In this document: one piece after another, positions 1 to 41,012 of the stretch
Layout of the letters: the number at the start of each line of letters is the position of its first letter
How positions within the stretch are numbered: position 1 is the first letter of the stretch
From: a bacterium
GTDB lineage: Bacteria > Patescibacteriota > Minisyncoccia > Phycocordibacterales > Zambryskibacteraceae
NCBI GenBank assembly: GCA_023266935.1
Contig: JAHFOF010000002.1
Span: 68,623-132,622 of the forward strand
Length of the DNA stretch: 64,000 nt
Direction: 5' to 3'
The notes under the pieces: model-generated
Seen by the model: only the letters and a program-made list of their open reading frames with translations
Database searches by the model: none
What the model was told of the DNA's origin: nothing
Translations under genes and position numbers: made by a program

Positions 1-273
1 TATATCAAGACTAAAATTCATATCCTTCATCCAAAATCCGTGCTTGTCCGCAGAAGGAAAAACAAAAAGCATCGCCTGCCCTTCTTCTAAACCCTTGCGA
101 CCACTCAATCCGAGCGTACGCAGAGCATCTGTATCAGCGATTTGGGCGTTCACTTGTGCATCACCAATAGAAACAGTCGTGGTTTTATATTCATTTTGAC
201 TTTTTGGTTCTGGGAAAATAGCTAAAACAAAAAATAGAACGATAATCGTGATAACAGCTACAAGATATTTCAT
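1..273 (-). CDS. DUF192 (COG1430) family secreted protein, 3' end truncated by window edge
   Basis: Minus-strand translation MKYLVAVITIIVLFFVLA...ADTDALRTLGLSGRKGLEEGQAMLFVF...GFWMKDM matches the DUF192 pattern. The frame is open to base 1. Confidence 0.5.
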   Translation of the reverse strand, partial: MKYLVAVITIIVLFFVLAIFPEPKSQNEYKTTTVSIGDAQVNAQIADTDALRTLGLSGRKGLEEGQAMLFVFPSADKHGFWMKDMNFSLDI

Positions 274-3676: not shown

Positions 3677-5985
3677 GAGGTTATGTATTCTGGATCGTCT
3701 CCATTTGTTTCGATATAATCTCGATGCTCGGCCAACAACTTTTCATATTTATTTTTTATCTCATTCGCTTTGTCTTTGCTTATCACTCCTCTCTCACTCA
3801 TAAGATCAACCGCTTCGATAATGAGGTGAAAACGACTAGTTCTGTTTCTCACTTGCATATCGAATGGAGTGGTCGTCGAACCGTGTTCTAAATATCCATG
3901 GATGTAGAAACGCCCAACTGCACTTTCTTCATCGAACAAAATTTGTTTAATCGTTTCTGGATAACCGTGGAAATTCAAAATCACCGGTTTATCTTCAGTA
4001 AAATATTTTTTAAAATCAGACATGAATCCTTTGGGTTTGGTTTCTTCCCTCCCGCTCGAAGAAAGTTCGACGATGTTCACAAAACGAGTTTTGATTTCCG
4101 GAGCGTCTTCTTTTAAAAGAGAAATCGCAGCCAAACATTCTTTGGTCAGATAATCTCCAGCTGAAGAAAAAATGATGTCTGGATTTTCTTCGCTCGCAAA
4201 GTCCCAAATCATCGCTCCTTTATCAAGCGCTTCCTCAGCTTGTTCGAGAGTGAGCCATTCGGGCATATCGGCCTTACCCGAAACCAAAGCATTGATTTGT
4301 TCCTTGGATTCTAAACATTTCTTCAAAGCGACGAGAGTGCTGTTCCTGTCCACGGGGAAATAAACATGAACGAACGAACCGTGTTTCTGAAGTACCGAAT
4401 CGATGAAACCGGGGTTTTGGTGAGAAAAACCGTTGTGCTCTTGTGCCCAACCGGGGCTCGTTAAAATATAGTTAAGCGAAGCCACGTGTCCTCTCCAAGG
4501 TATCTCTCGAGCAACACGAATAAACTTGGCATATTGGTCTGTCATACTGCTCACTATGGGCATAAAGGCTTCATACGAAGGAAAGATAGCGTGTCGACCG
4601 GTCAAAACATATCCTTGCATCAAACCTTGGAGAGAGTGCTCGGAAAGCATCTCTATCACTCGACCGGTACGAGCCATGTCTTCATCTTGATCCAGGTGTG
4701 GCCAAACGAAGGCTCTAGTTGTGGCTTCGAAAATTGCGTTTAATTTATTTGAATAAGTTTCGTCAGGAGAAAAGATGCGAAAGTTTTTTGAAGGTTCGTT
4801 CATATCCAACACTCGTTTGAGATAATGCCCCGCAGATTTCATACTGCTTGCAAGCGTCGCACCAGGAGACGTCACCGCCCCAGCATCTTCGGTCACTTCG
4901 GGCAAAAACAAATCATGGCAAACCTTTTCTCCGCCGAAACATTGTCTGTTGTTTCCTATTCTCCTGTCTTCTTTAGGAATTAATCCTTTGATTTCTTCTA
5001 CGAAACCTTTTTCTTTATCAAAAAGTTCATTGAATTTATACGAACGTAACCAATCTTCAACCGCTTTCAATTCTTCCGGATCACTCTTCGCATTTGTAGC
5101 TACCACTTGATGTGAAGCGAAGTTGCCTTCGATTTTTTTGCCGTGCAATTCTTTTATCCCACTCTCTCCTTTGAGTGTAGTAAGCACAATCATCGGAAAG
5201 TGGGGAGAAACGGGGTTTGATTTTTTAATCTCCAGAATTTCTTCATAGCAATCTTCGAGCGTTTTAGATAATCGTTCGTGCACTCCTTCACCACCTTCGA
5301 CAAAATGCGGTTTGTATCCGTAGCCAACGAACAAAGAATTTAATTCTTCATCAGACATTCGACCAAAAATAGTTGGACCGGAAATTTTATAACCATTCCT
5401 ATGAAGCACCGGTAGAACCGTCCCATTCGTTTTTGGGTCGATGAATTTATTTATATGCCATGCTGTGGCCAAAGGTCCCGTTTCTGCTTCTCCATCACCG
5501 ATGAGAACAGTAGCAATCAAATTTGGATTATCTAAAACTGCTCCATACGCAGTTGAAAGTGAATAACCAAGCTCTCCCCCTTCGAGTATGGCTCCAGGGG
5601 TACCCGGATTAGTGTGGCTAGGAAATCCATACGGCCAGCTGAAAAGCTTTATCATCTCACTAATACCCTTTTCATTCTGCGTGAGGTTCGGGTAATACTT
5701 TGAAAGAGTACCTTCGAGAAAGAGGTTCGCCTGAAGTCCAGCGAAGCCGTGTCCAGGACCCAATACAAAAATCATGTCCAAATCGTGCTTTATCACCAAC
5801 GCATTCAGATGTGCATAGAGAAGGTTCACCCCTGGACAAGTCCCCCAGTGTCCGAGCAAACGGGGCTTTATATCATCAAATGAGAGTGGCCGTTCGAGTA
5901 GAAAATTATCCTTGAGAAATATCTGCGCAGTGGTCATATAGTTCGCCGCCCGAACATACATTTCAAAGTTTTTGTCTTCAATCAT
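3658..5985 (-). CDS. xfp: xylulose-5-phosphate/fructose-6-phosphate phosphoketolase
   Basis: 775 aa; GHWGTCPG and TPP-enzyme motifs; classic xfp–ackA pair. Confidence 0.9.
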   Translation of the reverse strand: MIEDKNFEMYVRAANYMTTAQIFLKDNFLLERPLSFDDIKPRLLGHWGTCPGVNLLYAHLNALVIKHDLDMIFVLGPGHGFAGLQANLFLEGTLSKYYPNLTQNEKGISEMIKLFSWPYGFPSHTNPGTPGAILEGGELGYSLSTAYGAVLDNPNLIATVLIGDGEAETGPLATAWHINKFIDPKTNGTVLPVLHRNGYKISGPTIFGRMSDEELNSLFVGYGYKPHFVEGGEGVHERLSKTLEDCYEEILEIKKSNPVSPHFPMIVLTTLKGESGIKELHGKKIEGNFASHQVVATNAKSDPEELKAVEDWLRSYKFNELFDKEKGFVEEIKGLIPKEDRRIGNNRQCFGGEKVCHDLFLPEVTEDAGAVTSPGATLASSMKSAGHYLKRVLDMNEPSKNFRIFSPDETYSNKLNAIFEATTRAFVWPHLDQDEDMARTGRVIEMLSEHSLQGLMQGYVLTGRHAIFPSYEAFMPIVSSMTDQYAKFIRVAREIPWRGHVASLNYILTSPGWAQEHNGFSHQNPGFIDSVLQKHGSFVHVYFPVDRNSTLVALKKCLESKEQINALVSGKADMPEWLTLEQAEEALDKGAMIWDFASEENPDIIFSSAGDYLTKECLAAISLLKEDAPEIKTRFVNIVELSSSGREETKPKGFMSDFKKYFTEDKPVILNFHGYPETIKQILFDEESAVGRFYIHGYLEHGSTTTPFDMQVRNRTSRFHLIIEAVDLMSERGVISKDKANEIKNKYEKLLAEHRDYIETNGDDPEYITSWQWKN

Positions 5986-6047
5986 GTATATAGAATACCA
6001 TTATTTGACCCTAACCCCCATACTCCTTTCCACCATTATTAATGGTT

Positions 6048-6443
6048 TTATTTGTTAAACTCCAGGTTCAAACTCACGAGTTTGTGGAGTTCAACTTTGA
6101 ATGAAATAGGTCTAAGCACGTTAGACATGCTGTTTGCACCTTCACCAATCGTATAGTTTCCAGGGACTAAATCTTGAGAAAAATATCCGCCTGCATCAGT
6201 TCTCACTATGATTTCTTTAGTTCCACTTCTTATCACCAAAGCAGTTTGTTGGGGTTGACCACCTATGGTCACTATCCCTTCTACTCCTGTATCCACTCTA
6301 CCCGGTCGAGCGACAATCACTTCGTTTGGTTGTTCTTGGCTGATAATATAGTCCACAACTTTCGGCACCCAAGTTTTCTGTGTGAGCAACAATCCAATAC
6401 CAATAATAATTAGAATAAAAAGAAAAATCCGGATGAACTTCAT
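6048..6443 (-). CDS. membrane-anchored CarboxypepD_reg-like domain protein
   Basis: N-terminal TM followed by GRVDTGVEGIVTIGG...TDAGGYFSQDLVPGNYTI pattern; start placed at the MKFIRIF internal Met. Confidence 0.45.
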   Translation of the reverse strand: MKFIRIFLFILIIIGIGLLLTQKTWVPKVVDYIISQEQPNEVIVARPGRVDTGVEGIVTIGGQPQQTALVIRSGTKEIIVRTDAGGYFSQDLVPGNYTIGEGANSMSNVLRPISFKVELHKLVSLNLEFNK

Positions 6444-6557
6444 TTGTGAAGAATTAATCATTCTTATATTTTATCACCAATGTCAACCATTCGACCATTC
6501 GCACAAATTAAAGATGGTTTTTCAAACTTAGAAAAAACTCCGTAGGTTTCTACGGAG

Positions 6558-7181
6558 TTACCAGCGTTTGCGGGTAGTGATAGCTGGGGTAACAACTTTG
6601 CCCTCCTCGGCCAGTTTCTGTCGATACTGGGCTCGTTTGTGACGAGCAATCTTCACATAGAGCTTCATACCCAGAGGCAGTGGGGTATCCCAGTTGCAAA
6701 CAACGAATTTGCGCGTTGGATGTTGGGTCTTGTTCCCACAATACCAGTATCGACTCTTCAGTACCCGCCCGTGGACAACCATCATGAATTCTCCACATTG
6801 CGGACACTTCGGCCGATAACGCACTCGGATTCGAGCAACTCTCGCTTGATTCAGCAAGTTATCCAAAAAGTTCTTCGTCCGATGAATCGGGTGACTCGAG
6901 TAGAGAATCTTGTCATCCCCTACGATGAGCACCCAACCAGCGTCTTCTTCCCTCGCTTCGCCTTCGTCTCGGAGCCAGGTGGTCCAGACATAAACATCCA
7001 GACCGTTGTCCGAATAGACATAGCCGGCTTCCTTGCCCGACCTCTGGCGTGGAGGTTTGAGACCAAACTTCAGGATATCCCTTCCCACTTCTGCAGAAGA
7101 GACTGGCCGAAAACCAAATCCAGTGAGGCGAGATTCAAATATCTCGAACTCGATGGGGTTCGGCAAGATTTTTTTTGGCAC
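6558..7181 (-). CDS. hypothetical zinc-ribbon protein in a GC-rich segment
   Basis: CPQC...YWYCGNK...VCNW Cys cluster. Visibly GC-richer than its neighbours. No family recognised. Confidence 0.4.
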   Translation of the reverse strand: MPKKILPNPIEFEIFESRLTGFGFRPVSSAEVGRDILKFGLKPPRQRSGKEAGYVYSDNGLDVYVWTTWLRDEGEAREEDAGWVLIVGDDKILYSSHPIHRTKNFLDNLLNQARVARIRVRYRPKCPQCGEFMMVVHGRVLKSRYWYCGNKTQHPTRKFVVCNWDTPLPLGMKLYVKIARHKRAQYRQKLAEEGKVVTPAITTRKRW

Positions 7182-7272
7182 TTAAACCTCCGACGAAAAA
7201 ATGAGGAGCAAGATGTGCGTTCCTAAACCATTTATAACCTTTTAAATAAAAAACCACAAGACTAGCTTGTGG

Positions 7273-7494
7273 TTATAACAAATCAATATACGGACGAACT
7301 TTGATGTAGCACTGGAACCACCATGCGACACCACAGAGAACAGTAACGATGCGAAAGTGATTAGCAAACTCCCGTCCGCCGACGGAGAAAAACAGAAATT
7401 CGAACGCTGTGATGATGATGGCCATCCCACCGAACCCGATGAACACAAGATACGTCTTCGGGCGCTGGATGGAGAGAGATCTAAAGAACCCCAT
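7273..7494 (-). CDS. possible small two-TM membrane protein
   Basis: Internal Met MGFFRSL... in a 116-aa frame, starting just after the upstream gene's stop; hydrophobic. Confidence 0.25.
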   Translation of the reverse strand: MGFFRSLSIQRPKTYLVFIGFGGMAIIITAFEFLFFSVGGREFANHFRIVTVLCGVAWWFQCYIKVRPYIDLL

Positions 7495-7511
7495 GTTGTT
7501 TCCTCCTGAAG

Positions 7512-8045
7512 TCACACGGTGATGGTCTGCTTCCCTCGCCTCTGCCTGATTGTTCTCAAACGACCAAACAGAGAAATCGAAGGAATAACAACAAATGTGA
7601 GGACAGCACCAGCAATCAACCAAACCAAGATGAAAGCGATGACCGCCGGACCAAGAATGAAAGCCAGACCGTGCGTGAACCAGAACGAGAAGTGTCCTCC
7701 ATTGAAATCATAGAAGATATCCTCGAAAAGATCCTGTTCGACCGCTTCTTGGTAATTCCAGTTGCGTTTGATGCCGAAAAGATGTCCATTCGAACTATGC
7801 AGTTGCTGGTTTGCCCATCGAATTCGATGCTTCTGACCACCGGGGAGGTAGCATGGAGCGATCTCCCTAAAGCATTCGAAAGCCAAGGTCCATCGCCCAC
7901 GACTGAGTCGGCCACTCCGCAAAGCATAGCCAACGCTCGTCAGAAAGTACCAACCCATAAAACAAATGATTAGGTACCCGATGGTTGAGAGGATGACGAG
8001 CGAGGTGAAAGCCCAGCTGGGCAGATTGAAAATCTGTTCATGCAT
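7512..8045 (-). CDS. hypothetical membrane protein in the GC-rich segment
   Basis: 177 aa with several TM helices; no recognisable family. Confidence 0.4.
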   Translation of the reverse strand: MHEQIFNLPSWAFTSLVILSTIGYLIICFMGWYFLTSVGYALRSGRLSRGRWTLAFECFREIAPCYLPGGQKHRIRWANQQLHSSNGHLFGIKRNWNYQEAVEQDLFEDIFYDFNGGHFSFWFTHGLAFILGPAVIAFILVWLIAGAVLTFVVIPSISLFGRLRTIRQRRGKQTITV

Positions 8046-8126
8046 CGTGACCTCATGCGTTGTGAGAGAGCGAAAGTCTTAAACCATAAAAGCATCTGAA
8101 GTAAATTTTGTCAAATTTTCCGACTT

Positions 8127-8214
8127 TGGCGGAAGCGGAGAGATTCGAACTCTCGGTGGGTTTCCCCACGCCACGTTTCCAACGTGGTGCACTAGACCAC
8201 TATGCGACGCTTCC
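8127..8214 (-). tRNA. tRNA-Ser (GGA)
   Basis: Reverse complement GGAAGCG...CCACG-TTGGAAA-CGTGG...long variable arm...TTCGAAT...CGCTTCCGCCA. Anticodon GGA; CCA encoded. Confidence 0.85.
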
Positions 8215-8236
8215 CGATATTAATTTTGAAAGCTTT

Positions 8237-8297
8237 CACTAGACCACCCATCGCCTTTGGCGAGGTCCCGCCGTAGGCGGTGATATGCGACGCTTCC
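8237..8297 (-). pseudogene. partial duplicate of the tRNA-Ser 5' end (nt 1-14 and 15-25) interrupted by a 36-nt double-hairpin element
   Basis: cactagaccac (8237-8247) and tatgcgacgcttcc (8284-8297) are identical to tRNA positions 15-25 and 1-14. A 36-nt insert lies between them. Confidence 0.7.
8248..8283 (-). repeat. 36-nt double-hairpin motif, copy C (degenerate, compensatory stem changes)
   Basis: TCACCGCC-tac-GGCGG GACC TCGCC-aaa-GGCGA TGG in tRNA orientation. Hairpin 2 is TCGCC/GGCGA versus CCGCA/TGCGG in the other copies. Confidence 0.6.
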
Positions 8298-8314
8298 AGA
8301 ATACAAATACTATA

Positions 8315-8965
8315 TTATTTGGCGATTTCTGAATACACCACCACTTTATTTCTCCCACTTCTTTTCGCTTTGTATAAACATTTATCCGCACGATCGATGA
8401 TATTTTCAAAGGTTACGCCTTCATCTGTCGAGGCCACTCCTGCAGAAATAGTAACTTTGAATCCATCATCTTCATTAAATGCGAGGCGCTCGATTGCTTT
8501 CCTGATTTCTTCGGCTTTCTTCTTCGCCTGCTTCTCATCTGCTCCGAGGAGAGCGACCACGATTTCTTCCCCACCCCATCTGCATACTACGTCTTCATCT
8601 CGCACGCATTCTTCTATAGTATGAGCGACCACTTTCAACACTTCGTCTCCAGTGAGGTGCCCATGCTTATCATTTATTTTTTTAAAATGATCGATATCGA
8701 AAAAAATAAAACTCATGTTCTTTAATCCAAACCATGCTCGTCTCTGTGAATGTCTTTCACCTTCTATAGAATTAAAGTGATTACGCGCTTCAACATTAAA
8801 AAACGCACGAGTCTTTATATGAGTCAACGAATCATGAATGAGGTCTTGTTGGAGAAGTTTAACCTTGTGCTCCAAATCAACGATGCGTTTCCTCATTTCT
8901 TCTGGAGTCTGAATTTCTTTCATTTTATCTAGATTACCATTTTCCTGAAGACCCGCCACCCCCAC
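8315..8965 (-). CDS. GGDEF-domain diguanylate cyclase
   Basis: GGEEI active-site motif, RADKCLYKAKRSGRN, N-terminal coiled coil. Confidence 0.85.
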   Translation of the reverse strand: MGVAGLQENGNLDKMKEIQTPEEMRKRIVDLEHKVKLLQQDLIHDSLTHIKTRAFFNVEARNHFNSIEGERHSQRRAWFGLKNMSFIFFDIDHFKKINDKHGHLTGDEVLKVVAHTIEECVRDEDVVCRWGGEEIVVALLGADEKQAKKKAEEIRKAIERLAFNEDDGFKVTISAGVASTDEGVTFENIIDRADKCLYKAKRSGRNKVVVYSEIAK

Positions 8966-12743: not shown

Positions 12744-13331
12744 TTATTTGCGGGTTACATAAACTAATTGGATTTTGGTACCGCCCGATTCTGGATTGAT
12801 AATGATGTTCAGTTCTTCTCGATCCTTAATTGCTTGATATCTGATTAATGATGCAGATTTGGATTGACTCACAATCGTAAATCCGTTGGTTGATAAATAT
12901 TTACTGTATGCAGAATAAAGTTCTTCTGTTTGTTTTGAAGACATGTACTGCACAGAATACAAGGTTGCTCCTCTGTCTGGATAAGCGAGAACTTCTGATT
13001 TAGAAATATTTTTCGTTTCCACAGGAATGTCTGTTGGGAATCCAGCTGGAAGTTGTTTGACTCCATCGGTGATTTGGACCTTTTCAGTAGTGAAAGATTT
13101 GTTCGGACGATTTGTGTAGTAGAAATATCCAGCCAACAACCCCAAGATGATCGCCAAAACAATAATGGAAATTAAATACGAATGAGGAGTAGGAACATCA
13201 GATGCCTTCTGAGGAGGTGGTGTTGAAATTGGAGCTTGAGGAGGTGGAGTATAAACAGGGGTGGAAGCCACCGCATTTTGCGGGGTCCCGCCAGAGGCGG
13301 TGATTGGGTTTTGGTTTAAATTTGGAGGCAT
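12744..13331 (-). CDS. hypothetical membrane protein (Pro-rich N-terminus, one TM)
   Basis: 195 aa. The N-terminal codons overlap copy B of the 36-nt motif, so the true start is uncertain. Confidence 0.4.
   Translation of the reverse strand: MPPNLNQNPITASGGTPQNAVASTPVYTPPPQAPISTPPPQKASDVPTPHSYLISIIVLAIILGLLAGYFYYTNRPNKSFTTEKVQITDGVKQLPAGFPTDIPVETKNISKSEVLAYPDRGATLYSVQYMSSKQTEELYSAYSKYLSTNGFTIVSQSKSASLIRYQAIKDREELNIIINPESGGTKIQLVYVTRK
13268..13303 (-). repeat. 36-nt double-hairpin motif, copy B
   Basis: Reverse complement tcaccgcctctggcgggaccccgcaaaatgcggtgg is near-identical to copy A. It lies at the 5' end of gene 12744..13331. Confidence 0.7.
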
Positions 13332-18336: not shown

Positions 18337-18358
18337 AAAAATAATAAAATGAATCCAA

Positions 18359-18394
18359 TCACCGCCTCTGGCGGGACCCCACAAAATGCGGTGG
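18359..18394 (+). repeat. 36-nt double-hairpin motif, copy A (5' leader of rnj)
   Basis: tcaccgcctctggcgggaccccacaaaatgcggtgg. Inverted orientation relative to copy B, about 5 kb away. Confidence 0.7.
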
Positions 18395-18492
18395 CTCCTG
18401 CTCCTACACGCACACATGCTCCGCGTTCTCCACTCATGTCTCGTTCTCTAAAACAAAGAGGGATGAGAAGGGACAATGATCGCCCGATTCCG

Positions 18493-39629: not shown

Positions 39630-39690
39630 GCGGCTGTACCCGCCCGAACGTGCCGAAGCACCTTCGGTACGGGCGGGGCTCAACGGTAGA
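39630..39690 (+). pseudogene. partial duplicate of the tRNA-Asp 5' end (nt 1-9 and 10-22) interrupted by a 39-nt GC-rich hairpin
   Basis: GCGGCTGTA + CCCGCCCGAACGTGCCGAAGCACCTTCGGTACGGGCGGG + GCTCAACGGTAGA. The flanks are identical to the intact tRNA-Asp at 39926. Confidence 0.7.
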
Positions 39691-39695
39691 TCAAT

Positions 39696-39935
39696 ATGCA
39701 CATTGTATACGTTTTACAAGACGAAAAGGGTAAGTTTTACAAAGGACTTACAAATAACCTTGCAAGACGTTTCAGTGAACATAAAAGAGGAGAAACAATT
39801 ACAACTTCAAAAATGAGTGGGTTGAAAATTGTTTATACTGAAGAATATGACTCCTTCGAAAAAGCCCGAGCAAGAGAAGTGTACCTAAAAACTGCTGCGG
39901 GACGAAGGTTTCTGAAAAATAAATTGCGGCTGTAG
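39696..39935 (+). CDS. small GIY-YIG nuclease-domain protein (UPF0213/YhbQ-like)
   Basis: IVYVLQDEKGKFYKGLTNNLARRFSEHKRG GIY-YIG motif; 79 aa. The stop codon lies inside the first 10 nt of tRNA-Asp. Confidence 0.75.
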   Translation: MHIVYVLQDEKGKFYKGLTNNLARRFSEHKRGETITTSKMSGLKIVYTEEYDSFEKARAREVYLKTAAGRRFLKNKLRL

Positions 39936-40000
39936 CTCAACGGTAGAGCACTCCCCTGTCACGGGAGAGGCCGTGGGGTCAGCACCCATCAGCCGCGCCA
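39926..40000 (+). tRNA. tRNA-Asp (GUC)
   Basis: GCGGCTGTAGCTCAACGGTAGAGC...CTCCC-CTGTCAC-GGGAG...CAGCCGCGCCA with encoded CCA; unusual T-loop GTCAGCA. Confidence 0.75.
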
Positions 40001-40004
40001 AACC

Positions 40005-40170
40005 AAAAAGTCCAGATTTATTCTGGTCTTTTTTATACCTTTGCCGAGCTGAAGAAATGTTTAAATGACATTTCGTTGGGTGCTGAGGGCGCAGGCCGAC
40101 GGGCCGAGCCGGGGTCGCGCAAATCCCGACCACGGGATTATGTGTGATCAGACCACCCATCATCCGCGCA
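40005..40170 (+). repeat. 166-nt direct repeat R1 (cassette-junction element ending in a tRNA-Asp 3'-like core)
   Basis: About 97% identical to 40846..41012. Internal hairpins GAAATGT..ACATTTC and AATCCCG..CGGGATT. 3' end CCACCCATCATCCGCGCA. Confidence 0.85.
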
Positions 40171-40244: not shown

Positions 40245-40814
40245 ATGGAAAAAGTACCAGGACAATATGAAACCGAAGGTTTTATACCATTTGAACAATC
40301 CCTTCAAATGGCTCGAAAACTCATGGAAGATCATGAAGACGAATTGATAAATATCCGCGCTGCACTTCCCGAAGAAGATCGAGAGGCAATTAGATTTAAT
40401 GGAAGTTCCATTGAACACCACTTGAATAAGTTTCCTAAAGAAACACTAAAAAGATTTTGGGGACATGGAATTTTCAGAGGCGACGCAGAAAAAAATCTTG
40501 CGGCGCTGATTAATGTTATCCAAAATAAAAGTATAAAAGGTTCTATTGCCACCCTTGTTGATAGTGGTTATTATGATGCCGCAAAGGATGGCGATTTTTT
40601 AGTTCTTTCACACGCAGACACCACGCTCGCTGTGTTGAATGAAAACGGCAAACCTATCTTTAATGAAATCGGTTTAGTTATTAACGCTGGAGCCTATGTG
40701 GTAAATGCGAAGCTTTATCCAATAATTGATGATTTGAAGGTTCTTTTTCCTGATGCAAATATTCTCATGGCAAATGAAGTTCCTGAGTATGTGAATAGTG
40801 AAACTGGAGTTTAG
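40245..40814 (+). CDS. hypothetical protein (cassette 1 cargo)
   Basis: 189 aa, soluble, no family recognised. Confidence 0.45.
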   Translation: MEKVPGQYETEGFIPFEQSLQMARKLMEDHEDELINIRAALPEEDREAIRFNGSSIEHHLNKFPKETLKRFWGHGIFRGDAEKNLAALINVIQNKSIKGSIATLVDSGYYDAAKDGDFLVLSHADTTLAVLNENGKPIFNEIGLVINAGAYVVNAKLYPIIDDLKVLFPDANILMANEVPEYVNSETGV

Positions 40815-40845
40815 TTCTCACTTCATACACTAGCCCGCGCTAGGT

Positions 40846-41012
40846 TAAAAAAGTCCAGATTTATTCTGGTTTTTTTATACCTTTGCCGAGCTGAAGAAAT
40901 GTCTAAACGACATTTCGTTGGGTGCTGAGGGCGCAGGCCGACGGGCCGAGCCGGGGTCGCGCAAATCCCGACCACGGGATTATGTGTGATCAGACCACCC
41001 ATCAGCCGCGCA
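40846..41012 (+). repeat. 166-nt direct repeat R2
   Basis: Second copy; 3' end CCACCCATCAGCCGCGCA is almost identical to the tRNA-Asp 3' end. It is preceded by the 21-nt junction cttcatacactagcccgcgct, which recurs at 41723..41743. Confidence 0.85.

Follow-up and report, generated by a model that had tools for sequence, protein, structure and literature searches.

A hairpin-split duplicate of the tRNA-Ser 5′ end in a Patescibacteria genome: a probable relic of a tRNA-invading GIY-YIG nuclease cassette

Introduction

Homing-endonuclease genes (HEGs) pass through a cycle of invasion, degeneration, and loss, for which PMC6279837 cites Goddard and Burt. Allomyces atp6 is reportedly a case of a partial target-gene duplicate by an endonuclease ORF. 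Transfer RNA genes are classical integration sites; integration by an integrase leaves a duplicated 3′ tRNA part at the distal end of the island. In Rickettsia, short palindromic elements are tolerated in frame inside coding genes. Patescibacteria are ultra-small bacteria with tiny genomes and mostly single-copy tRNA genes. Here, we describe a hairpin-split duplicate of the 5′ end of a serine tRNA gene in the window, the whole 64,000-nucleotide stretch of Patescibacteria DNA that was analyzed, and compare it with cassettes in which a small GIY-YIG nuclease gene is enclosed between a tRNA fragment and an intact tRNA gene.

In fungal mitochondria, partial C-terminal duplicates of atp6 or cob flank free-standing endonuclease ORFs of the GIY-YIG or LAGLIDADG type (PMC6279837). 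These systems resemble the cassettes described here in that the endonuclease ORF adjoins an essential gene, a partial duplicate of which lies on the other side of the ORF, while one copy is intact; the ORFs later degenerate, as they do here. In contrast to the fungal HEGs, the target is a bacterial tRNA gene instead of a protein gene, and the nuclease is a bare SLX1/UPF0213-type domain of approximately 80 residues. Furthermore, the displaced copy in the cassettes is always split by a GC-rich palindrome, and both 5′ and 3′ mirror forms exist.

The mobility of Allomyces mitochondrial double-hairpin elements (DHEs) is cited in PMC3787672. DHEs, yeast GC clusters, and Rickettsia palindromic elements share with the hairpins described here a small size, a high GC content, a fold of one or two hairpins, and residence in AT-rich genomes, where they are dispersed, polymorphic in their insertion, and tolerated in frame within coding genes. 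Unlike DHEs and GC clusters, the hairpins described here are bacterial, strongly favor the D-loop in pseudo-copies of tRNAs, and go together with a nuclease clade, and no likeness of sequence is expected.

SegB of phage T4 is a GIY-YIG homing endonuclease encoded in a tRNA cluster, and it promotes the inheritance of its own tRNA region (PMC2330249). The embedding of a GIY-YIG nuclease gene among tRNA genes is common to both systems; SegB, however, is full-length with a DNA-binding part and is located between intact tRNA genes, and no hairpin-split partial tRNA copies are described for SegB. Insertion sequences in the rRNA genes of CPR bacteria carry GIY-YIG ORFs and are neither group I nor group II introns (PMC11270868). 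These insertions occur in the same phylum and encode the same nuclease superfamily, but can dispense with the target duplication that the tRNA cassettes contain; PMC11270868 makes no mention of tRNA. The tRNA genes of Patescibacteria also contain group I introns at position 35/36 (PMC13011429), which are likewise mobile insertions in tRNA genes of this phylum. A group I intron is a self-splicing ribozyme located in the anticodon loop, and only one copy of the gene is involved. The cassettes, in contrast, contain no ribozyme detectable with Rfam, the gene is duplicated instead of spliced, and the insert is placed in the D-loop of the truncated copy.

In the limited full-text collection that we searched, no account was found of minimal GIY-YIG genes flanked by tRNA duplicates that are split by hairpins; the matches were confined to the position-35/36 introns, the rRNA insertions, T4 SegB, and the mitochondrial cases. 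The serine locus of the window is most likely a decayed member of this architecture.

Results and discussion

Organization of the tRNA-Ser(GGA) locus

The window has a GC content of 40.7% and contains eight tRNA genes. The intact tRNA-Ser(GGA) gene (8127–8214, minus strand) was identified using ARAGORN and Rfam (tRNA family, 56.2 bits); it is 88 nt long and includes an encoded CCA end. A first-pass annotation of the window had reported that nucleotides 1–14 and 15–25 of this tRNA are duplicated exactly 22 nt upstream of the intact gene, and that a 36-nt double-hairpin insert splits the duplicate in the D-loop. Our analysis confirms both observations and their coordinates, which refer to the minus strand; the annotation had left the strand unstated. 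The copy of nucleotides 1–14, GGAAGCGTCGCATA (8284–8297), is separated by the GC-rich insert, TCACCGCCTACGGCGGGACCTCGCCAAAGGCGATGG (8248–8283), from the copy of nucleotides 15–25, GTGGTCTAGTG (8237–8247). Both copies were recovered by a repeat search and a k-mer scan. The insert contains the stems CCGCC/GGCGG and TCGCC/GGCGA, and is predicted to fold into two hairpins with an energy of −17.1 kcal/mol (z = −2.95). A spacer of 22 nt, AAAGCTTTCAAAATTAATATCG (8215–8236), delimited by reading the sequence, connects the fragment to the intact gene, whose nucleotides 1–25 constitute the rebuilt 5′ part. On its other side, the fragment is bordered by a 17-nt native upstream flank, TATAGTATTTGTATTCT (8298–8314), with a −10-like TAGTAT motif at 8312–8307. 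The flank abuts the stop codon (8317–8315) of a gene encoding a GGDEF diguanylate cyclase (8965–8315; Pfam E = 2.3e-41). All these features are located on the minus strand, in the order GGDEF stop codon, flank, nucleotides 1–14, insert, nucleotides 15–25, spacer, and tRNA-Ser(GGA). The extra sequence in front of the tRNA amounts to 83 nt, of which 61 nt belong to the split fragment and 22 nt to the spacer.

When the 150 nt upstream were shuffled 5000 times, a colinear 25-nt chain of this kind never appeared; by a rough analytic estimate, the expectation is ~1e-11. Nucleotides 14 and 15 of the tRNA are contiguous across the insert, and therefore there is no target-site duplication. A contig assembled independently in Logan (run SRR14366756), which may derive from the same source sample, is identical across the entire region, which argues against an artifact of a single assembler.

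A consensus scan detected no consensus promoter at the locus, and the TAGTAT motif is a putative promoter element. The hairpins could be taken for an intrinsic terminator of the GGDEF gene; we rejected this interpretation, since the hairpins precede GGGTGGTC and a consensus scan found no terminator-like site in 8050–8450. An intron in the tRNA gene, of group I or with a bulge-helix-bulge motif, was rejected as well, because the interrupted copy stops at nucleotide 25 and matches no Rfam intron. At both gathering and permissive thresholds, Rfam contained no family matching the fragment, the hairpin, or the repeats of the tRNA-Asp locus described below.

Relatives contain empty sites

Syntenic loci of relatives were reached through homologs of the GGDEF protein. 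Six of them (L201–L206) encode a GGDEF protein that is 79% identical, retain the LemA-TPM-GGDEF gene order, and have a tRNA-Ser(GGA) gene without the fragment; in L201 the tRNA begins 18 nt past the GGDEF stop codon. In L207 and L208, with 65% identity of the GGDEF protein, one or two extra genes are followed by a near-identical tRNA without the fragment. The same arrangement of one or two extra genes is found in L209 (GGDEF 79% identical), where the fragment-free tRNA is identical in 87 of 88 positions. A covariance model of the hairpin had no match in L201, L207, or L209, the three representatives searched. The 83 nt is an insertion polymorphism. The presence/absence polymorphism that the first-pass annotation had named as a test is thereby found, and its counter-proposal of an ordinary tRNA-Ser leader conserved in all relatives is contradicted by three syntenic sets with a near-identical tRNA and no insert.

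The empty alleles lack the whole 83 nt and not merely the 36-nt hairpin insert, and an empty and a filled site differing by the hairpin alone were not found among the loci compared. In L201 and L207 the TAGTAT motif precedes the first nucleotide of the tRNA by 9–11 nt; in the window it precedes the fragment by 9 nt. The conserved flank bearing this motif is thus located in front of the fragment in the window, and not in front of the intact tRNA-Ser gene. Because the flank that precedes the tRNA in relatives stands before the fragment in the window, the fragment appears to be the displaced native 5′ end. The absence from the relatives could in principle result from a precise loss instead of a gain.

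A sister cassette at tRNA-Asp and a twin at another tRNA-Ser(GGA)

The window contains an intact cassette at tRNA-Asp (39630–40000, plus strand). It is composed of a copy of tRNA-Asp nucleotides 1–9 (39630–39638), a 39-nt hairpin, a copy of nucleotides 10–22 (39678–39690), an ORF encoding a 79-residue GIY-YIG protein (39696–39935; Pfam GIY-YIG E = 2.8e-12), and the intact tRNA-Asp gene (39926–40000), all on the plus strand. The hairpin has a predicted folding energy of −26.8 kcal/mol (z = −3.9). The ORF fills the gap between the fragment and the tRNA, and its stop codon is located within the intact tRNA-Asp. The first-pass annotation had correctly recognized 39630–39690 as a second hairpin-interrupted 5′ duplicate in the 64 kb, with the insert after nucleotide 9. 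Its reading of hairpin-split tRNA duplicates holds in that the serine feature is genuine, polymorphic, and one of two in the window; the link to the GIY-YIG gene was missed, and a link to the adjoining GC-rich segment is unsupported. An exact look-up of the Asp-linked GIY-YIG protein returned no record, and tblastn searches of the window with three GIY-YIG queries matched the Asp-linked gene only.

No endonuclease ORF lies between the fragment and the tRNA of the serine locus, where only the spacer is present. An ORF-bearing twin of this locus was found at a non-syntenic tRNA-Ser(GGA) next to a truB-like gene in L071, a contig of a metagenome-assembled genome (MAG) labeled Saccharibacteria. 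It consists of GGAGGCGTCGCATA, the TCGCC/GGCGA hairpin variant that is also present in the window, GCGGTTCAGC, AAAAAAAATATG, a GIY-YIG ORF ending in GGAGAGGCTTTAAAAAAATTAATAGAG, and tRNA-Ser(GGA). The 14-nt fragment of L071 matches that of the window in 13 of 14 positions, nucleotides 15–24 follow the hairpin, and over 55 nt spanning fragment and hairpin L071 and the window share 89% identity. The ORF encodes an SLX1/UPF0213-like protein of approximately 80 residues and is frameshifted.

The alignment of the tRNAs of L071 and the window reaches 13 nt into the window spacer. The spacer matches the last bases of the L071 ORF in 16 of 21 positions with one 2-nt gap, and both abut the first nucleotide of the tRNA. 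The spacer is AT-rich and only 22 nt long, and the match to L071, although positional, is short. When the spacer was compared with the tails of 77 ORFs, the highest-scoring tails belonged to Ser-linked ORFs and shared its codon register, ...AFK(K)LI.... Of 500 shuffles, 5 reached the mean score of the ten best matches (p ~0.01) and 32 the best single score (p ~0.06); this comparison is modest on its own but consistent. The spacer can be read as the remaining 3′ end of a GIY-YIG ORF that has otherwise been deleted. Given the match of the spacer to the end of the L071 ORF, the serine locus of the window is most likely an ORF-deleted relic.

The tRNA-Ser(GGA) gene is occupied in two unrelated contexts, beside the GGDEF gene in the window and beside the truB-like gene in L071. 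The empty state of L201, the ORF-bearing but frameshifted state of L071, and the ORF-less state of the window look like stages of the invasion, degeneration, and loss of HEGs.

The fragment-hairpin-ORF-tRNA architecture is general

In three further loci (L073, L063, and L103), a serine-type fragment with a hairpin is followed within a few bases by a GIY-YIG ORF of approximately 80 codons, which ends 7–10 nt before tRNA-Ser. The associated ORFs encode only the catalytic GIY-YIG domain of approximately 80 residues. A profile of the ORF family matches the UPF0213 structures 1zg2 and 1ywl with E ~1e-11 and, more weakly, SLX1 chains with E-values of 4e-4 to 4e-3; NCBIfam yielded no informative family. 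The family corresponds to the minimal stand-alone Slx1-like GIY-YIG domain discussed in PMC1564403.

A metagenome scan with an alignment of four tRNA-linked GIY-YIG ORFs as the query gave 80 loci. In 34 of them, a tRNA on the same strand begins 2–190 nt, mostly 2–16 nt, past the stop codon of the ORF. A copy of the tRNA 5′ end, defined as a colinear exact match of at least 14 nt, lies directly upstream of the ORF in 22 of 29 non-redundant loci; a permutation with mismatched tRNAs, which served as the control of the census, gave 1.3 of the 29 loci on average and 5 at most. The copies start at nucleotide 1 and end between nucleotides 14 and 40, often reaching or running past the anticodon. In all 22 loci, a GC-rich hairpin or palindrome interrupts the 5′ copy or directly follows nucleotide 14. 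It is always placed after nucleotides 8–23, corresponding to the D-arm or D-loop, and its GC content ranges from 0.58 to 0.87, with the exception of long Met-type inserts. The opposite side of the tRNA often carries tRNA fragments too.

A mirror class, in which the tRNA is followed by the ORF and a hairpin-split 3′ pseudo-copy, accounts for 18 of 28 loci, compared with 2.2 expected. In its 3′ copies, the palindromes occupy the D-loop or T-loop, or take the place of the anticodon arm. Nuclease clade, tRNA identity, and palindrome type covary: the Arg clade occurs with CCTGCCTGCCGGCAGGCAGG, the Pro clade with TGGCGCCnnGGCGCCA, and the Ser clade, which includes one Gln and two Tyr loci, with the CCGCC double hairpin. 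The fragment-hairpin-ORF-tRNA architecture is general. Further members of the GIY-YIG family are located inside 16S and 23S rRNA genes, where they are bracketed by inverted repeats, in agreement with the report of GIY-YIG ORFs within non-intron rRNA insertions of CPR bacteria (PMC11270868).

The double hairpin belongs to a dispersed family

Two further copies of the double hairpin were identified in the window, each in frame at the 5′ end of an ORF: one at 13266–13304 on the minus strand, in an ORF encoding 195 residues, and one at 18358–18396 on the plus strand, in an RNase J-like ORF. Three copies in 64 kb, found by searching for GC-rich islands and for the sequence pattern, compare with 0.01 expected. 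A covariance model built from copies of the family recovered no additional copy in the window; it scores the copy of the serine locus at 61.9 bits, and the 39-nt match has a GC content of 67%, compared with 41% for the window.

A 21-nt core pattern was used for a scan of one genome per species. Most of its 119 matches are chance occurrences in coding regions of high-GC genomes, and the whole double hairpin is present in about 20 low-GC MAGs of Patescibacteria. The core pattern makes helix 1 invariant by construction, and only the covariation of helix 2 is informative. Among 19 copies, helix 2 displays the compensatory changes CCGCA/TGCGG, CCGCC/GGCGG, TCGCC/GGCGA, and GCGCC/GGCGC; 97.9% of the cells are paired, and the observed covariation score was reached by 0 of 500 shuffles. 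The hairpin is a structured, dispersed family that is GC-rich within an AT-rich genome.

In nine MAG loci, the hairpin lies within a 5′ pseudo-fragment of a tRNA, upstream of the intact tRNA on the same strand. It is usually placed after nucleotide 14 (Ser, Cys, and Asn) and is inverted once (Glu), and some of the pseudo-fragment loci contain additional hairpins after nucleotide 9 or 12. In the remaining loci, as in the two other copies of the window, the hairpin is located in frame inside ORFs, which are mostly long (up to 967 residues). These coding-region copies are always read in the frame ITAxGGTPxxAV. A model search of unselected loci found both orientations of the hairpin relative to the tRNA, and the idea of a fixed orientation was dropped on these grounds.

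Proposed origin of the locus and role of the palindrome

The 61-nt feature and the 22-nt spacer are probably the relic of a tRNA-invading GIY-YIG cassette. We propose that a gene for a minimal SLX1/UPF0213-type GIY-YIG nuclease of approximately 80 residues entered the 5′ half of tRNA-Ser(GGA). The insertion is viable owing to a second copy of nucleotides 1–25 at the far end of the cassette, which rebuilds an intact gene, while the displaced native nucleotides 1–25 remain joined to the native upstream flank. The displaced copy is split after A14 by the 36-nt double-hairpin module, the companion of such cassettes wherever the fragment is recognizable. A later deletion of approximately 220 nt may have removed nearly the whole ORF and left its last ~20 nt as the spacer. 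The tRNA would now be transcribed from the old promoter through a self-folding leader of about 83 nt, presumably removed by RNase P. The predicted minimum-energy fold shows a self-paired leader, with GGAAGC joined to GCUUUC of the spacer in addition to the two hairpins, and an independently formed cloverleaf.

The cassettes may spread by homing-like recombination, with the tRNA-derived segments serving as homology arms in any genome that contains the respective tRNA. Such arms would explain the specificity for a tRNA type in the absence of a DNA-binding domain. Classical sequence-specific homing is doubtful for a GIY-YIG domain of 80 residues that has no DNA-binding domain. The intact tRNA copy at the locus would also be a target of a nuclease directed by tRNA sequence, which speaks against the cassette origin.

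The cassette origin of the serine feature is well supported; the role of the hairpin we can only infer. The palindrome is always present, is conserved in structure, and is co-inherited with the nuclease clade, and therefore we regard it as a part of the cassette and not as a late neutral insertion. Its occurrence in both orientations relative to the tRNA points to a role at the level of DNA rather than RNA. The palindrome may break up the direct repeat, recombination of which would otherwise delete the ORF, and the decoy strand. It is also possible that it forms a cruciform that is the substrate of the SLX1-like structure-specific nuclease.

We further speculate, although we consider it rather doubtful, that the GC-rich palindromes and the minimal SLX1-like GIY-YIG nucleases constitute an unrecognized class of bacterial mobile elements. 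The nuclease of such elements would act on cruciforms and not on long specific sites, pieces of tRNA and rRNA would serve as portable homology arms, tRNA genes would be colonized throughout Patescibacteria, and the hairpin-split pseudo-tRNA would be a functional end of the element and not debris. If true, this would provide a function for the long-unassigned UPF0213/YhbQ family.

These findings suggest that many tRNA genes of Patescibacteria harbor a selfish nuclease cassette whose survival depends on restoring the interrupted gene, and they illustrate how an essential, unsplittable RNA gene can still be colonized. Minimal bacterial SLX1-like GIY-YIG proteins are tied to specific palindromic DNA modules, which makes their substrate directly testable. 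For genome annotation, 5′ or 3′ pseudo-fragments of tRNAs and GC-rich hairpins next to tRNA genes should be read as probable footprints of mobile elements and not as regulatory leaders, and likewise the 12-codon ITAxGGTPxxAV inserts in proteins should not be read as protein motifs.

Alternative explanations and the GC-rich segment

The serine locus could have arisen in two unrelated steps, the tRNA 5′ end first being duplicated locally in tandem and an autonomous MITE- or REP-like double hairpin inserting later, at a site that never contained a GIY-YIG gene. The double hairpin is also found away from tRNAs and GIY-YIG genes, and could be an independent mobile element that separately entered the fragment. 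Its dispersal, with three copies in the 64 kb and others in long ORFs of other Patescibacteria, its two orientations relative to tRNAs, and the common occurrence of loci with a fragment and a hairpin but no ORF (L093, L048, L031, L114, and L082) are in line with such a history. However, in L071 an ORF accompanies the same fragment and the same hairpin variant, and the window spacer matches the end of that ORF. A hairpin in 22 of 22 recognizable ORF-adjacent pseudo-fragments would not be expected from independent later insertions. In addition, the hairpin type tracks the nuclease clade. We therefore consider the two-event history unlikely. Alternatively, the host might maintain the feature as a cis-acting leader of tRNA-Ser, in which the decoy 5′ strand and the hairpins regulate processing or expression. 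The exact copy in 25 of 25 positions, the stable fold predicted for the leader alone, and the recurrence of the design upstream of many tRNAs could be explained in this manner. The leader is nevertheless missing from all syntenic relatives despite their near-identical tRNA, is elsewhere tied to a selfish-looking ORF, exists as a 3′ mirror form, and matches no Rfam family, which makes host maintenance quite improbable.

An artifact of assembly or a chimera is practically negligible as an explanation: short repeats beside hairpins can confuse assemblers, but the sequence is identical in the independent Logan assembly, and the same architecture occurs in dozens of unrelated assemblies. It is very improbable that the feature is the attachment-site scar of an island inserted by an integrase at the tRNA and linked to the GC-rich segment at 6550–8050. 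The first-pass annotation had placed the locus at the edge of this segment, which it called foreign-looking. In addition to the general use of tRNA genes as integration sites, this idea draws on the composition of the segment (49–52% GC compared with 41% in the window), on a gene content unlike that of L201, and on one ORF with a weak match to Zn_ribbon_recom (E = 5e-4), which is below the Pfam threshold. The duplicated part, however, is the 5′ part of the tRNA, located 22 nt away and on the opposite side from the segment, which adjoins the tRNA 3′ side. Positions 5900–8126 contain no tRNA-derived repeat longer than 9 nt, and Pfam identified no integrase gene. Apart from the sub-threshold Zn_ribbon_recom match, the ORFs of the segment belong to no significant Pfam or PHROGs family; PHROGs had no match for its three ORFs, for a 189-residue ORF, or for the GIY-YIG ORF. 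The GC-rich segment is simply a region that differs between relatives.

GIY-YIG cassettes at tRNA genes

The sister cassette at tRNA-Asp (39630-40000) is intact, and is composed of a copy of tRNA nucleotides 1-9, a 39-nt hairpin, a copy of nucleotides 10-22, and a GIY-YIG ORF. The 79-aa ORF begins 5 nt beyond the copy of nucleotides 10-22, and its TAG stop codon is formed by nucleotides 8-10 of the tRNA. A related hairpin, with the end ...CGGTACGGGG, follows nucleotide 9 of a tRNA-Asn fragment at L031, a locus from outside the window, where the GC-rich double hairpin is also present, after nucleotide 14. The tRNA-Asp (39926-40000) has the unusual T-loop GTCAGCA in place of the usual TTCRAAT, which would put a G at both standard positions 54 and 58, and still scores 59 bits against the Rfam tRNA model.

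Cassettes with a mirrored architecture, in which the intact tRNA is followed by the GIY-YIG ORF and then by a tRNA pseudo-copy, were found at other, metagenomic, loci (L122, L128, L151, L153, L163, L166, L171, L173, L180, L181, L183, L184, L192, and L198). The pseudo-copies comprise the 3' part of the tRNA or almost its full length, and carry palindromes in the D-loop and T-loop, or a similar-sized hairpin in place of the anticodon arm, as in a tRNA-Pro pseudo-copy (TGGCGCCTTGGCGCCA).

The Ser-linked GIY-YIG ORFs of L071 (~110-130, minus strand), the ORF-bearing twin of the window tRNA-Ser locus, and of L103, where the ORF lies upstream of tRNA-Ser, are each disrupted by a one-base frameshift. 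Both frameshifts are located in an A/T run immediately 5' of the codons for the conserved C-terminal KxGGEAFKKLI, and could reflect programmed frameshifting, an error of sequencing, or decay of the gene.

Some GIY-YIG ORFs of this family are located elsewhere, either within genes for 16S or 23S rRNA or in different contexts (L140, L154, L158, L160, and L175; also L144-L150, L147, L182, L161, and L177). These ORFs are flanked by GC-rich inverted repeats of 12-20 nt, whose pairing would put the ORF into the loop of a long stem, a layout similar to that of an intervening sequence.

tRNA-derived fragments on both sides of tRNA genes

At several loci, the intact tRNA is flanked on both sides by tRNA-derived fragments or whole extra copies (L141, 422-464 and 881-923; L153 and L181, upstream side). 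Therefore, nested or repeated invasions of tRNA loci seem common, and the other side of a tRNA is not a valid control for a fragment census.

Two direct repeats of ~168 nt (40003-40170 and 40845-41011), about 97% identical, enclose a 189-aa ORF (40245-40814), for which searches of Pfam and PHROGs returned no family. Both repeats start with a terminator-like hairpin, contain a GC-rich structured stretch (-45 kcal/mol, 99 nt), and end in the 3' end of tRNA-Asp, nucleotides 58-66 in one and 58-73 in the other. These ends look like 3' pseudo-fragments, which would place relics on both sides of the Asp gene.

Double hairpins within coding genes

Two double hairpins of the window, 43/45 nt identical to each other, lie within ORFs, at residues ~3-12 of a 195-aa membrane protein (13266-13304, minus strand) and of an RNase J-like protein (18358-18396, plus strand). 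In other genomes (L002, L018, L040, L096, L104, L105, and L068), copies are found in linkers or in terminal parts of ORFs of 437-967 aa. All of these copies are in frame and translate as ITAxGGTPxxAV. The in-ORF double hairpins are reminiscent of Rickettsia palindromic elements, and suggest a mobile insert of 12-13 codons that proteins tolerate.

Region adjoining tRNA-Ser

The segment 6550-8050, on the 3' side of tRNA-Ser, is GC-richer (0.49-0.52 versus 0.41) and encodes ORFs of 207, 68-73, and 177 aa, without family matches except a below-threshold recombinase zinc-ribbon. No att repeat is recognisable in the segment. The insert-free syntenic relative L201 carries other genes at this place, one for an N6/N4 methyltransferase and two for products of 106 and 56 aa. 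The segment is a variable region adjoining tRNA-Ser.
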